Shown here piece after piece: positions 34,908-39,242 of a stretch of DNA of 64,000 bases. Position 1 is the stretch's first letter. Every line of letters starts with the position of its first letter. The position numbers were made by a program, and so were the translations under genes. The DNA is from an uncultured Verrucomicrobiae bacterium. Lineage in GTDB: Bacteria; Verrucomicrobiota; Verrucomicrobiia; Chthoniobacterales; JAATET01. The stretch covers positions 32,001-96,000 of the forward strand of contig CAVRCI010000004.1 in the NCBI GenBank assembly GCA_963719495.1. The letters are read 5' to 3'. Below the pieces are notes generated by a model. The model ran no database searches and was not told the origin of the DNA. It saw nothing but the letters and a program-made list of their open reading frames with translations.

Positions 34908-35669
34908 ATGAATTCGGCGGTTTTGGAGGTCGAGGGGCTTCGGAAGGAGTTTGGGGGTAACGCGGTGGTCGAGGGGCTTTCGTTCGCGGTGCGTCCGGGG
35001 GAAATTCTGGGGCTCTTGGGGGTGAATGGGGCCGGGAAGACGACGGCGATGAACATGATTCTTGGACTGGTCGAGCCGACGGCGGGGACGATCCGGGCGT
35101 TTGGGCTGCCGATGCCGAAGGAACGGGTTGCCATTCTCAAGCGGGCGAATTTTTGTTCGAGCTACGCGGCTCTGCCTTCGAATTTGCTGGTTTGGCAGAA
35201 CCTTTGGGTTTTTGCGCTGATGTATGGCGTGCGGAAGCCGAAGCGGCGGATCGAGGAATTGCTGGAGCTGCTCGAGATCGGGCATTTGCGGAATCGAGTG
35301 ACGGGTCACCTTTCTGCCGGGGAATCGACGCGGGTGAGTCTTTGCAAGGCGATGATCAATTCGCCGGAATTGCTGATGCTCGACGAGCCGACGGCGAGCC
35401 TCGATCCGGACATCGCCGACAAGGTGCGCAAGACGTTGCGGCGGGCGCAGCGGACGGACGGGATCACGATGCTCTACACTTCGCACAACATGCGGGACAT
35501 CGAGGAGGTGTGCGACCGGGTGATCTTCATTCACCACGGTAAGGCGATCGCGGAGGGGACGCCGGCGGACGTGGTGCGTGGGTCGTCTGACGCTTCGCTC
35601 GAGGCGATGTTCATTCGACTGGCTCGCGAGGGCGATCTGGAAGGGGTTCCGGGGGAGGCGGCGAAATGA
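34908..35669 (+). CDS. ABC-2 type transporter ATP-binding protein
   Basis: GVNGAGKT, LSAGE, LDEPT, SH. Confidence 0.95.
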   Translation: MNSAVLEVEGLRKEFGGNAVVEGLSFAVRPGEILGLLGVNGAGKTTAMNMILGLVEPTAGTIRAFGLPMPKERVAILKRANFCSSYAALPSNLLVWQNLWVFALMYGVRKPKRRIEELLELLEIGHLRNRVTGHLSAGESTRVSLCKAMINSPELLMLDEPTASLDPDIADKVRKTLRRAQRTDGITMLYTSHNMRDIEEVCDRVIFIHHGKAIAEGTPADVVRGSSDASLEAMFIRLAREGDLEGVPGEAAK

Positions 35670-36466
35670 TCTCGGTGGGGGTGATGAGCGGGTTGGTCCT
35701 GCGCTACGCGTTGCTCTACACGCGGACGTGGGTGCGGCTGGTCGAGCTGTTCTTCTGGCCGATCGTGGATCTGCTGGTGTGGGGATTTCTCACGAAATTT
35801 CTACAGCAGCAGACGACGGGGGCGTTTCCCCAATTCATCACGTTTCTCATCGGCGCGATGATTTTTTGGGACGTGCTGTTCCGGGCGCAGCAGGGGCTGG
35901 CGATGTCGTTTTTGGAGGACGTGTGGACGCGGAATCTGCTGAACGTCTTCGTCGCGCCGGTGCGGCCGTTCGAATACGTGGCGGCGACGGCGATCATCGG
36001 GACGCTGCGGGTCGCGGTCACGGTGAGTGTGTTGGCGGTGCTGGCGGTCGTAGCCTACGCGTTTCGGCTGTGGGATGTGGGGTGGGAATTGATTCCGTTC
36101 TTCGCGAATTTGCTGATTTTCGGCTGGTCGCTGGGGATGATTTCCGTGGCGTTGATTTTACGGTGGGGGCAGGCGGCGGAGTCGCTGGCTTGGGCGGTGC
36201 CGTTCCTGGTGCAGCCGCTGTCGGCGGTGTTTTATCCGGTCGAGGTGTTGCCGGGTTGGTTGCAGCCCGTGGCGTTGGCGCTGCCTTCGACGCACGTCTT
36301 CGAGGGGATGCGGGCGATTCTGGCGGGCGGGGGGACGCCCTGGGGTGGGCTGGCGTGGGCCTTCGGCCTGAACGTAATCTACGCGCTGGTGGCGGGTCTG
36401 ATTTTCGCGGCAGTGCTCGCGCAAGCCCGCCGGAGCGGCGGACTGGTCAAGATCGCAACCCACTGA
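35666..36466 (+). CDS. ABC-2 type transporter permease
   Basis: About 6 TM helices, VFYPVEVLP.WLQ; 4-bp overlap with the ATPase gene. Confidence 0.92.
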   Translation: MISVGVMSGLVLRYALLYTRTWVRLVELFFWPIVDLLVWGFLTKFLQQQTTGAFPQFITFLIGAMIFWDVLFRAQQGLAMSFLEDVWTRNLLNVFVAPVRPFEYVAATAIIGTLRVAVTVSVLAVLAVVAYAFRLWDVGWELIPFFANLLIFGWSLGMISVALILRWGQAAESLAWAVPFLVQPLSAVFYPVEVLPGWLQPVALALPSTHVFEGMRAILAGGGTPWGGLAWAFGLNVIYALVAGLIFAAVLAQARRSGGLVKIATH

Positions 36467-36485: not shown

Positions 36486-36521
36486 TGCAAAACTTTGGTG
36501 CGGCCGCATCAAAGTTTTGCA
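36486..36521. repeat. 36-bp near-perfect palindrome, left copy
   Basis: TGCAAAACTTTGGTGCGGCCGCATCAAAGTTTTGCA, one mismatched pair, ends 11 bp before the ATG at 36533. Confidence 0.92.
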
Positions 36522-36532
36522 AGGGTTCGAGG

Positions 36533-37312
36533 ATGAAGCCGAAGACTGAGCTGTTTTTGTATCAATTGGCGTGGACGGCTGGCGCGGTCATGCGTCCGAC
36601 GTTTCGCAATCTCAACGAGTCTTTCGAGGGATGGTGTTACCGCGAAGGGCTGTTGCGGCAGGTGGCGACTTTGGAACGGGAGGCTCTGATCGAGGTGTCC
36701 GGGGATGGATTGAATCGGGTTTGCCGTCTAACGGAGCGGGGGCGACTCCACGCGCTTGGCGGATTGAATCCCGTGGAGAGATGGGAGCGTTCCTGGGACG
36801 GGATGTGGCGGATGGTGTTGTTCGACCTTCCGGAAACGAAGCGGGCTCTGAGAAATCGGCTTCGCAAGCTGTTGCGGGAGCGTCGCCTTGGGTGTTTGCA
36901 ACAGAGCGTCTGGATCTCCCCGGACCCGACTGACTCGCTCGTCGAAGCGGTGCGCGGGACCGTGGATGTTCCCGACGTCCTCGTGTTCATGGAGGGGAGG
37001 ACGTGCGCGGGGGAGGAAGCGGCGCGATTGGCTGGGTCGGCGTGGGATTTTGCCGCCATCAACGAGCGGTGGTTGGCCTACGAGCGGCACTTGAACGCGC
37101 TGCCGACAAATCGGTCCGCCGATCTGGCCGCGGAGCTGAAGGCTTGGTCGGTCGTCGAACGTCAGCGCTGGCTGCAGTGTCGCCGGGCGGACCCTTTCCT
37201 ACCCGAGGCACTCTTGCCGAGTTCCTACCGAGGCCGGGAGGTGTGGGAGCTACGCTCGAGAACCCTGGCGAAGGCCTCGAAACGAGCCAAAGATGCCATG
37301 ACAAAACTTTGA
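36533..37312 (+). CDS. PaaX-family protein (wHTH, central Cas2-like domain, PaaX C-terminal domain)
   Basis: RLTERG, WDGMWRMVLFDLPE, LGCLQQSVWISP, AWD, DPFLPEALLP; no paa genes nearby. Confidence 0.85.
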   Translation: MKPKTELFLYQLAWTAGAVMRPTFRNLNESFEGWCYREGLLRQVATLEREALIEVSGDGLNRVCRLTERGRLHALGGLNPVERWERSWDGMWRMVLFDLPETKRALRNRLRKLLRERRLGCLQQSVWISPDPTDSLVEAVRGTVDVPDVLVFMEGRTCAGEEAARLAGSAWDFAAINERWLAYERHLNALPTNRSADLAAELKAWSVVERQRWLQCRRADPFLPEALLPSSYRGREVWELRSRTLAKASKRAKDAMTKL

Positions 37313-37334
37313 TGCGGCCGCATCGAAGTTTTGT
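37301..37334. repeat. 34-bp near-perfect palindrome, right copy; contains the PaaX-like stop codon
   Basis: ACAAAACTTTGATGCGGCCGCATCGAAGTTTTGT; TGA at 37310-37312. Confidence 0.92.
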
Positions 37335-37397: not shown

Positions 37398-39242
37398 GTG
37401 AGTTATCGCGTTTTTGCCCGGAAGTATCGTCCCCAGACTTTTGAACAGGTCGTTGGGCAGGAACACATCACGCGGACGCTGCAGAATGCGATCAAGGCAG
37501 AGCGGCTGGCGCAGGCTTACCTTTTCGTGGGGCCTCGGGGGATCGGGAAGACGTCGACGGCTCGGATTCTGGCGAAGGCGTTGAATTGCGAGCGGGGGCC
37601 GACGATCGAGCCTTGCGGTGAGTGCGACGCGTGCCGGGAGATCGCGGAGGGAATCGCTCTGGACGTGCTGGAGATCGACGGGGCGAGCAACAACTCGGTG
37701 GAATCGGTGCGGGAACTGCGGGAGAACGCGGCGTATGCGCCGGCGCGCGGGCCTTACAAAATTTACCTCATCGATGAGGTTCACATGCTGAGCACGGCGG
37801 CGTTCAACGCGCTGCTCAAGACGCTGGAGGAGCCGCCGCCGCACGTGAAGTTCATCTTTGCGACGACGGAGGCTCAGAAGGTGCCGGCGACGATCACGAG
37901 TCGGTGTCAGCGCTTCGATCTGCGGCGGATTCCGGCGGATCTCATCGCCGCGCATCTGCAGGCGATCGCGAAAAACGAGTCGGTGGAGCTGGGGGACGAG
38001 GCGGCGGCGGCGATTGCGAAGGGCGCGGACGGGGGGTTGCGCGACGCGGAGTCGATGCTGGATCAATTGGTGGCGTTCTGCGGCGAGGTGATCACGGAGG
38101 ACGACGTTCTCACGGTGTTTGGGTTCACGGCTCGGGAGACGGTGAACGATCTTTGCGCGCGAATGTTTGCGCTGGATGCCTCGGCGGCGCTGGCGCTGGT
38201 GGCGGATCAGGCCGAGGCCGGGCGGGATTTGTCGCGCTTGCTTTCGGACGTGATCGCGCATTTGCGGGATTTGTTGGTTCGAAAGGTTCAGCCGGTGGGC
38301 GCGGCGGGGGACGGGGTGGATGGCGATCAGGCCGAGGCGCTTTCGCAGGATAAATTGATCTTGCTGCTCGAGCACTTTGCGGAGACCGAGGGGCGGTTGC
38401 GGTGGGCGACGGATAAGCGGCTTTATCTGGATGTCGCGGTCATCAAAGCGGTGCATATTTTGGAGGAGACGACGCTCACGGACGTGATCGACGCGCTGGC
38501 GGCGATCGGGGAGGGCGGGGAGCCGGTTCATCGGTTGCGGGTGTCGGACCGGGCGGCGGAGAAATTGGCGGAGGCTCGGAATCCGCTGCCGGCGCGGGCG
38601 GTGCCGGCGCGACGGGAGGTGCCTTTGGCGAAAGAGGTTGCGGAGGTGAAGCGGGAGGTGCCACGTCCGGAGACTGTCGCGGTGCCGCGGACCGCCAAAG
38701 TTGAGGAAGAAGTTCCTAATACCAATACGGAAAAGACCGCGGATTTTGCGGAGAGCGCGGATGATACAAATACAAATACGGAGGCTCCCGAGGAGGTGGC
38801 TTCGAGTGGGGGGGGGGCTGGTCCCGCGGACGTTTGGGTGAAATTGGCCAAGGAGTTGGCGACTGAGTCGGTGATTCGGTTTGGTTGGCTGGAGCGGGGG
38901 GAGTTTGTCGGGTTCGAGGGTGGGCGGTTGAGGGTTCAGTTTCCGGCTTCGCTGGCGGAGAATACGACTTCCTTTTTCTGGCCGGATTTGCAGAAGACGG
39001 CGGAGGCTCGGTTGCGCGACGCTCTGGGCGAAAAGGTCGAGTTTGTCTGTGATTTCTCGGAGGCGATGACGGAGGCGAGTGCGCCCTGGGAGGAGGACCA
39101 AGCGGCCGAGCCGGAGGTTGTGAAGCCGGTGGCGGAAAAAGAGGAGCCGAAGGCCGATGCGATGGAGACCTTCCGGGATGATCCGCTCATCCGGAAAGCG
39201 ATTGAAGTCTTCCGGGCGGAAATAGAGACTCCCGCCTCATGA
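37398..39242 (+). CDS. dnaX: DNA polymerase III subunit gamma/tau
   Basis: ARKYRPQTF..VVGQ, GPRGIGKTS, CxxC Zn motif, EIDGASNN, DEVHML, SRC. Confidence 0.97.
   Translation: MSYRVFARKYRPQTFEQVVGQEHITRTLQNAIKAERLAQAYLFVGPRGIGKTSTARILAKALNCERGPTIEPCGECDACREIAEGIALDVLEIDGASNNSVESVRELRENAAYAPARGPYKIYLIDEVHMLSTAAFNALLKTLEEPPPHVKFIFATTEAQKVPATITSRCQRFDLRRIPADLIAAHLQAIAKNESVELGDEAAAAIAKGADGGLRDAESMLDQLVAFCGEVITEDDVLTVFGFTARETVNDLCARMFALDASAALALVADQAEAGRDLSRLLSDVIAHLRDLLVRKVQPVGAAGDGVDGDQAEALSQDKLILLLEHFAETEGRLRWATDKRLYLDVAVIKAVHILEETTLTDVIDALAAIGEGGEPVHRLRVSDRAAEKLAEARNPLPARAVPARREVPLAKEVAEVKREVPRPETVAVPRTAKVEEEVPNTNTEKTADFAESADDTNTNTEAPEEVASSGGGAGPADVWVKLAKELATESVIRFGWLERGEFVGFEGGRLRVQFPASLAENTTSFFWPDLQKTAEARLRDALGEKVEFVCDFSEAMTEASAPWEEDQAAEPEVVKPVAEKEEPKADAMETFRDDPLIRKAIEVFRAEIETPAS

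Follow-up and report, generated by a model that had tools for sequence, protein, structure and literature searches.

A PaaX/Cas2-fold gene between twin palindromes in a Verrucomicrobiota genome: a candidate REPtron-like unit

The locus and the closest described systems

The described arrangement closest to the locus studied here is the REPtron, in which the gene of a RAYT (REP-associated tyrosine transposase) lies between REPs (PMC2817692), and REPs are described as able to supply stop codons and to sit inside ORFs (PMC3733652). The initial annotation of the window, i.e. the whole 64-kb stretch of DNA that was analysed, had likened the site–gene–site layout found there to REP-RAYT elements, and the analogy fits. 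One gene is placed between two cognate palindromes (102 of the 108 loci studied), genomes with the gene are enriched in the palindrome (G341 being an exception), gene and repeat co-evolve, and the repeats both supply a stop codon and sit inside ORFs. The differences are that the protein has a PaaX/Cas2 fold rather than being an IS200/IS605-type transposase, and that the repeats are near-perfect dyads of 34–36 bp with a fixed C-N-N-N-N-G centre, without a GT(A/G)G head or a non-complementary middle. Furthermore, solo copies are found preferentially in divergent spacers and REPs in tandem and convergent ones, and overwriting of whole sites is seen. In Rickettsia, palindromic elements occur in frame inside conserved proteins. 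Repeats located in ORFs are described for R. conorii in PMC3733652. Compared with the Rickettsia elements, the repeat studied here is shorter, flanks the gene of a candidate cognate enzyme, and at some coding sites brings about a change without gain in length.

On the protein side, PaaX, a repressor that responds to phenylacetyl-CoA, is described as repressing its own promoter (PMC9493321), and PaaX proteins (8a39, 3l09, 3kfw) have the same three-part fold, with PaaX_M and PaaX_C, and likely the same dimeric DNA binding and autoregulation. The protein nevertheless scores 54.1 bits against a cut-off of 264.55 for TIGR02277, and PF05138 (paaA/C) was not found in this genome nor in 24 other genomes bearing the family; it was present in two of 27 genomes, beside weak PaaX matches that have no palindromes. 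The operator of PaaX is TGATTC-N27-GAATCA, whereas here the palindrome is continuous and has a second copy at the 3′ end, and Asp98 is kept here while E. coli PaaX has no Asp at this position. With Cas2 and VapD the protein has in common a ferredoxin fold with a conserved Asp after strand 1 and a conserved Ser further on. In this case, however, the domain is fused between DNA-binding and helical domains and tied to a specific DNA site, its scores are below the cut-offs (18.9 against 23.8 and 21.1 against 24.5 bits), and neither cas genes, an array nor an antitoxin gene are adjacent. VapD is described as having a conserved Asp and Ser, called catalytic, in the cleft between two subunits, and spacer acquisition by Cas2 as proceeding without its nuclease activity (PMC11980593), so that a conserved Asp need not mean cleavage. 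A search of the literature, largely outside subscription journals, found no published description of such a PaaX/Cas2–palindrome system.

Table 1. Features of the cassette, its host genes and the encoded protein (window coordinates unless given as residues)
Feature	Position	Strand	Remark
Left family-A palindrome	36486..36521	.	36 bp, central CGGCCG
Right family-A palindrome	37301..37334	.	34 bp; holds the last codons and the TGA stop
PaaX/Cas2-fold gene, 259 aa	36533..37312	+	ORF between the two palindromes
ABC-2 permease, left host gene	35666..36466	+	adjoins dnaX directly in congener G004
dnaX, right host gene	37398..39242	+	
N-terminal helical part with a likely winged helix	about aa 31-66		
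Cas2-like ferredoxin domain	aa 86-170		
C-terminal helical bundle	C-terminal part		
Asp98, Cas2/VapD-type acidic residue	36824..36826	+	conservation across representatives
Glu101, loop residue	36833..36835	+	covariation with the base pair at position 2 from the palindrome axis
Gln123-x-Ser125 motif	36899..36907	+	99-100% conserved

Both palindromes lie where the initial annotation had placed them (Table 1). They are loop-less, have 30 of 32 core bases in common and are centred on GCGGCCGC. Between the left one and the ATG (36533) there are 11 bp, the TGA stop (37310-37312) falls within the right one, and their inner arms are an exact inverted repeat of each other (16/16). A search of the window also bore out that it holds no third copy. 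The genes around the cassette encode an ABC ATPase, the ABC-2 permease and DnaX, and the claimed absence of paa genes extends to the whole genome (98.6% complete), in which the PaaA/PaaC family was not found. The skew of the gene towards A/T-ending codons is real and modest, with a GC3 of 0.74 compared to 0.79, 0.85 and 0.77 for its neighbours, i.e. the 8th percentile of 2823 home-called genes (genome median 0.83). Neither a sigma-70-like promoter at the left palindrome nor a built-in promoter was seen in the window; across the family, 25 of 94 loci have TANNNT after the inner left arm, compared to 11-19 for the other arms. There is no integrase among the neighbours of this cassette, and the analysis turned up neither an excised circle nor a target duplication or a clean excision scar. 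Our preferred reading, which on balance we consider somewhat probable, is that the cassette is a selfish unit resembling a REPtron, whose protein would cut the centre of the palindrome and leave it to host repair to copy the arms.

The protein, its family and the flanking pairs

A general feature of the family is the possession of a flanking pair of its own by nearly every gene. Out of 129 loci collected, six duplicates or fragments and seven loci with short flanks were dropped and 108 full-length loci were analysed, a matched pair being defined as upstream and downstream palindromes that outscore the best of 42 control windows. Such a pair was present in 102 of the 108 (94 non-redundant) and not detectable in six, so that the site–gene–site layout first noticed at a single locus proves to be the rule; among short CPR-type forms, a profile-based search recovered it in 23 of 33. 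Arms are 17-18 bp long. In 376 arms, only C or T occurs at the second position from the axis and the third is G in 95% of cases, while the two central bases vary. The arms form 48 clusters among 93 loci, and the more alike two proteins are, the more alike are their palindromes (rho 0.53, with relatives that are not independent).

The family spans this phylum and CPR bacteria, and its members are annotated in databases as phenylacetate repressors. At E<1e-30 it comprises 382 clusters; relaxing the threshold to E<1e-10 gives 2508, probably with true PaaX among them. The supposed mobility of the gene agrees with its patchy distribution (21 of 401 genomes of the phylum) and with the diversity of its neighbourhoods (70 upstream contexts in 81 loci and 74 downstream contexts in 84). 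No relative was found among 20 candidates in viral contigs. Three CPR genomes (G454, G482, G512), although small, carry 5-7 paralogues each, mostly with a different palindrome pair for each paralogue. Identical 32-bp palindromes flank two loci from the genomes of two different families (L109 in G293 and L124 in G331) whose proteins are 59% identical, and the locus studied here likewise has the same palindromes as L020, with proteins only 49% identical.

The 259-aa ORF matches PaaX_M (E 7e-22) and PaaX_C in Pfam, and Cas2 weakly (18.9 bits, below cut-off). Its AlphaFold model (pLDDT 88) has E. coli PaaX 8a39 as best structural match (Z 12.7, rmsd 7.7 Å over 233 aligned residues; Foldseek E 2e-8), followed by 3kfw, Mycobacterium Rv0674 (Z 12.4), and the best matches over 199-233 residues are PaaX proteins. 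The middle domain superposes on Cas2 proteins (Z about 8, rmsd 3-4 Å, 74-80 residues). No recombinase fold or family is among the Pfam, NCBIfam and structural matches listed for the protein, and no Pfam or NCBIfam match to an IS200/IS605-type Y1 transposase was obtained, the assignments being to PaaX/Cas2 for the middle and C-terminal parts. The acidic residue after the first strand, pointed out in the initial annotation, turns out to be nearly invariant: Asp98 is present in 98% of 125 representatives and in 100% of 93 palindrome-flanked loci, and together with Arg107, Gly120, Gln123, Ser125 and Trp127 it belongs to a set of positions conserved at 98-100%. Ser125 is the likely counterpart of VapD's second catalytic residue, judging from the comparison of the two proteins, and by analogy with PaaX the protein likely dimerises on the palindrome. 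The sole invariant tyrosine is Tyr232 in the C-terminal domain, and the short CPR forms (150-200 aa) end before it.

With this ancestry, it could also be that the protein only binds DNA, as an autorepressor looping two operators, and that something else spreads and rewrites the palindromes, for example cruciform processing by the host, gene conversion between copies or a transposase or integrase acting in trans, binding merely protecting the sites. The fold and the closest solved relatives, which are PaaX repressors, are in line with this, as are the repression by PaaX of its own promoter and the position of the upstream palindrome, whose centre lies 50-55 bp before the start codon in 35 of 94 loci; the upstream copy probably does serve as an autorepression operator in addition. 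However, Asp98 is kept in members flanked by palindromes, all four relatives without this residue also lack the pair (two of the four lie beside paa genes), and we regard this explanation, for which further evidence is given below, as unlikely overall.

Palindrome and protein co-vary, as the initial annotation had anticipated, but the strongest signal lies in the Cas2-like loop and not in the winged helix, where it had been proposed to look for it. The top covariation links residue 101 to arm position 2, with Glu101 in 41 of 47 loci having a CG..CG centre compared to one of 46 having CA..TG. In CPR loci the figures are 17/18 and 0/2 (Fisher p 0.016, with one truncated match read by eye). When the loop is left out of the tree, the link comes down to about five changes per trait and one independent pair on well-supported branches, which is not significant. 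The association suggests that the cleft between the Cas2-like domains sits on the palindrome axis, and would at best indicate contact, not cutting. Covariation specific to the winged helix was looked for and rejected, given that four protein regions behave alike (rho 0.47-0.53, again among kin that are not independent). Three CPR loci (L312, L321, L330) have a third type of centre, CT..AG, with Glu or Asp at position 101.

Dispersed palindromes and their fate in congeners

A whole-genome search identified 26 copies of the family-A palindrome in the 4.54-Mb genome: the two flanking copies, 18 intergenic ones and six in frame inside genes, including mnmE and hrpB (copies were placed with a home-made gene caller and checked by eye, C1:102213 being reassigned to intergenic). 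These 26 copies rule out a cassette having only two sites. The self-contained cassette of the initial annotation thus stands as far as the link between palindrome and gene is concerned but not as regards confinement to two sites, the palindrome being a dispersed, lineage-specific repeat. As for a repeat unlinked to PaaX-like genes, which had been named as the opposite outcome, the palindrome is dispersed but tied to the gene. Pattern A has 25 copies here, one in G001, one in G051 and none in 58 other genomes; the copy in G001 belongs to the orthologue at the same site, and G051 has a related gene. Pattern B has 53 copies here, four in G005, which has a B-type gene, one in G001 and none in 58 others; the G001 copy sits in a MITE, and that genome has no B-type gene. 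Since a reversed-pattern control gave no matches in all 61 genomes, the palindrome is not a chance occurrence. Three further palindromes, searched for in 39 genomes, were found only alongside their own gene, the first with eight copies in G051 and the second with seven in G293 and three in G331. Dispersal is not universal, because the third, that of G341, has its two flanking copies only. In a generic census, 83 palindromes of the family type were counted here as opposed to none in 1.6 Mb read of G003, which lacks the gene. Across genomes, a palindrome goes together with its cognate gene, and its traces are decayed where no such gene was found. Such gene-linked dispersal speaks against a protein that merely binds.

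Twelve of the 18 intergenic A copies lie in divergent spacers, where about 20% would be expected; for family B the count is 5 of 23. By inference, this bias would fit an operator role or a preference for cruciform-prone supercoiled DNA. Combined with the PaaX ancestry, it could mean that the protein is an ordinary global regulator and that the solo palindromes form an operator regulon built by selection. We find this very improbable. All six orthologous divergent spacers in G003 are without the site (five of them shorter than here), and at C1:280774 the site is present in none of three; six copies are inside unrelated genes, several of them as insertions; the genes next to solo copies have no pathway in common; and family B is without the divergent bias, just as the left copy is without a sigma-70-like promoter.

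The flanks of A copies differ from copy to copy with no common tag, no target-site rule was found for the copies, and the longest direct repeat around the 25 A copies is 3-7 bp without fixed offset, unlike the target duplication of DDE-type elements. On the other hand, 14 of the 25 copies are perfectly symmetric, against 5.8 expected, which the binding-only explanation could obtain by hairpin correction alone. In nine of the 25, symmetry reaches at least 24 bp with site-specific sequence, and extended symmetry exceeds that obtained by flank shuffling (128, compared to a mean of 93 and a maximum of 115); at C13:413628, the extra arm mirrors the native flank. The extended, site-specific symmetry points to a fold-back step in the making of these sites. 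Four palindromes (C4:333627, C4:333748, C3:70537, C3:70787) are A/B intermediates with an A-like centre and B-like arms, and an RHS-repeat gene has one such intermediate at its 3′ end.

Copies inside genes were compared with their orthologues in five congeners, G001-G005. Some are in-frame gains: at the palindrome, hrpB has 17 codons more than in most congeners and a cation transporter gene 18-20 more, and in an ArnT-like gene the copy is common to G001 while G004 has a decayed copy. At other sites replacement is length-neutral, the number of codons being unchanged in a glycosyltransferase gene and in mnmE. The glycosyltransferase site carries A here (33/34), decayed A in G003 (25/34), a variant A2 in G001, decayed A2 in G004 (22/34), decayed B/C in G005 (25/34) and nothing in G002, without any indel. 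Five of the six species compared thus have palindrome traces at one codon position, each with p of about 1e-6 or less per position against the G003 background, and between this genome and G001 the site shows four mirrored double changes. The copy in mnmE combines a right arm that matches family A with a left arm resembling the G001 type, and the same loop of hrpB holds an unrelated palindrome type in G001. In G003 (97% complete) and G004 (88%), in which the gene was not found, the palindrome is represented by decayed traces only. The possibility that solo copies are rearrangement scars was rejected for lack of enrichment at synteny breaks over 1.6 of about 3.5 Mb of G003 (0 broken, 3 one-sided and 6 intact, compared to 67, 287 and 440). 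A block of 27 kb that is absent at C1:144490 was located on C15 and C9, with no A copy at those coordinates.

History of the site, the paralogue and a possible mechanism

An empty-site allele, which the initial annotation had proposed looking for in relatives, does exist: in G004 the permease adjoins dnaX, with neither gene nor scar, and a search for an eroded scar gave 17/34 at best, not above chance. G001 has the orthologous gene at the same site, permease and dnaX are unlinked in G002 and G005, and G003 has no permease match. It is more likely that G004 has lost the cassette than that it represents the state before insertion, because G001 and G004 are sisters in the mnmE tree (the dnaX tree leaves them unresolved). 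In the G001 orthologue the inner arms are A-type and the outer arms those of another family, the two being joined at the axis; across the pair the arms match at 15/16 and 14/16, compared to 8-9/16 within each site. Weaker cases of arm hybrids were seen at L001 and L127. Judging from these arms, either history, gain or loss, would need single-arm exchange at the centre. Arm hybrids are nevertheless a minority, since at the informative sites of the 94 loci symmetry within a palindrome prevails (70, compared to 40 for the pattern expected from integration and 29 for the direct pattern). In G001, single-base frameshifts affect both mnmE (C2:51591, L284) and the PaaX-like gene (C12:49706-50487, L012); because mnmE is also shifted by one base and both could be assembly errors, it is uncertain whether the gene copy is a pseudogene.

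The genome encodes a paralogue (C1:367099-367884, 49% identity) flanked by family-B palindromes in the same geometry, borrowed stop included. It is part of an array (L274, C1:361000-375000) running clpB, B site, SNF2 helicase, B site, paralogue, B site, TOTE primase/helicase, B site and further through an AAA ATPase to an integron-type integrase (249 bits, cut-off 265), which is 1 kb from the paralogue's island. G005 has the first part of the array in common at 95% (clpB 91%), and the other congeners are without it. Family B has 41 copies in the genome and its variant C 17, but these counts overstate the number of independent events because most copies ride inside a classical MITE of 575 bp, found at C2:826001-826574 and about 19 other sites outside the window. 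The MITE has terminal inverted repeats of ~20 bp and, in 9 of 16 cases, 9-bp target duplications at a fixed offset, and inside it are a B palindrome, a C palindrome and a variable microsatellite of the GAAC type; some copies have one site, or a single hybrid site, in place of the pair. The B/C pairs were considered as non-autonomous derivatives of the paralogue, and this was ruled out by their residence in an element with terminal repeats and duplications of its own. In five old copies, the body has diverged by 24.5% (583/2379) and the palindromes by 4.1% (14/340), which we count in favour of the preferred reading as a sign that the palindromes are kept up.

Hybrid junctions with matched inner and matched outer arms, as in G001, L001 and L127, are what one would expect if the protein were a conservative site-specific recombinase exchanging strands at the two free central bases in the manner of lox or integron systems. 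The gene or neighbouring cargo would then leave as a circle and enter other palindromes. The freedom of the two central bases next to fixed positions 2 and 3, the location of the paralogue within a multi-site array, and MITE copies in which one or a single hybrid site replaces the pair would agree with such an activity. However, no recombinase fold is among the structural matches listed, the only invariant tyrosine is in the part of the protein that short CPR forms do not have, exchange of the conservative kind could neither give rise to a first site nor overwrite coding sequence with its flanks left in place, solo copies are not enriched at synteny breaks, and the empty site in G004 bears no scar. 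Taken together, this makes a recombinase quite improbable. The integrase near the paralogue's island could be regarded as the mover required by the binding-only explanation, but none is found beside the cassette studied here, and arms of the resident family would not be the ones introduced by a host process that ignores sequence.

Under the REPtron-like reading that we prefer, a dimer would bind the palindrome with its winged helices on the arms and its paired Cas2-like domains over the centre, Asp98 and Ser125 would cut the central C-N-N-N-N-G hexamer, and host repair, through fold-back or template switching, would then copy arms either from another copy or from the site's own mirror arm. The outcome of repair would be insertions, overwrites and hybrids and, more rarely, the transfer of the whole gene to new or existing sites. 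A bolder proposal, which we put forward tentatively as a possibility, is that the family constitutes an undescribed class of site-specific enzymes with a Cas2/VapD fold. In these, a dimer would read the 34-36-bp palindrome and cut or exchange strands at the central hexamer, with specificity residing in the loop beside the catalytic Asp; it would write its own site, overwrite the sites of rival families arm by arm even in essential genes, and move itself and cargo genes from site to site. PaaX repressors would then descend from this element through domestication and loss of the Asp. Should the protein be the mover, the cassette would represent a new class of bacterial selfish element, built on a fold known from CRISPR adaptation and from toxins and not from any known transposase or recombinase. 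It would also give a testable source for in-frame palindromes in conserved proteins, a natural library of dozens of protein–palindrome pairs together with a one-residue hypothesis of specificity, and a lead on the origin of Cas2-like domains and of the PaaX regulator.

A near-identical repeat (99%+), probably an insertion sequence, was also noted at C13:493200-493990, C1:379109-379884, C10:24885-25667 and three more sites; it starts 30 bp after one of the MITE copies, and the A copy at C10:24787 is about 100 bp away from it.
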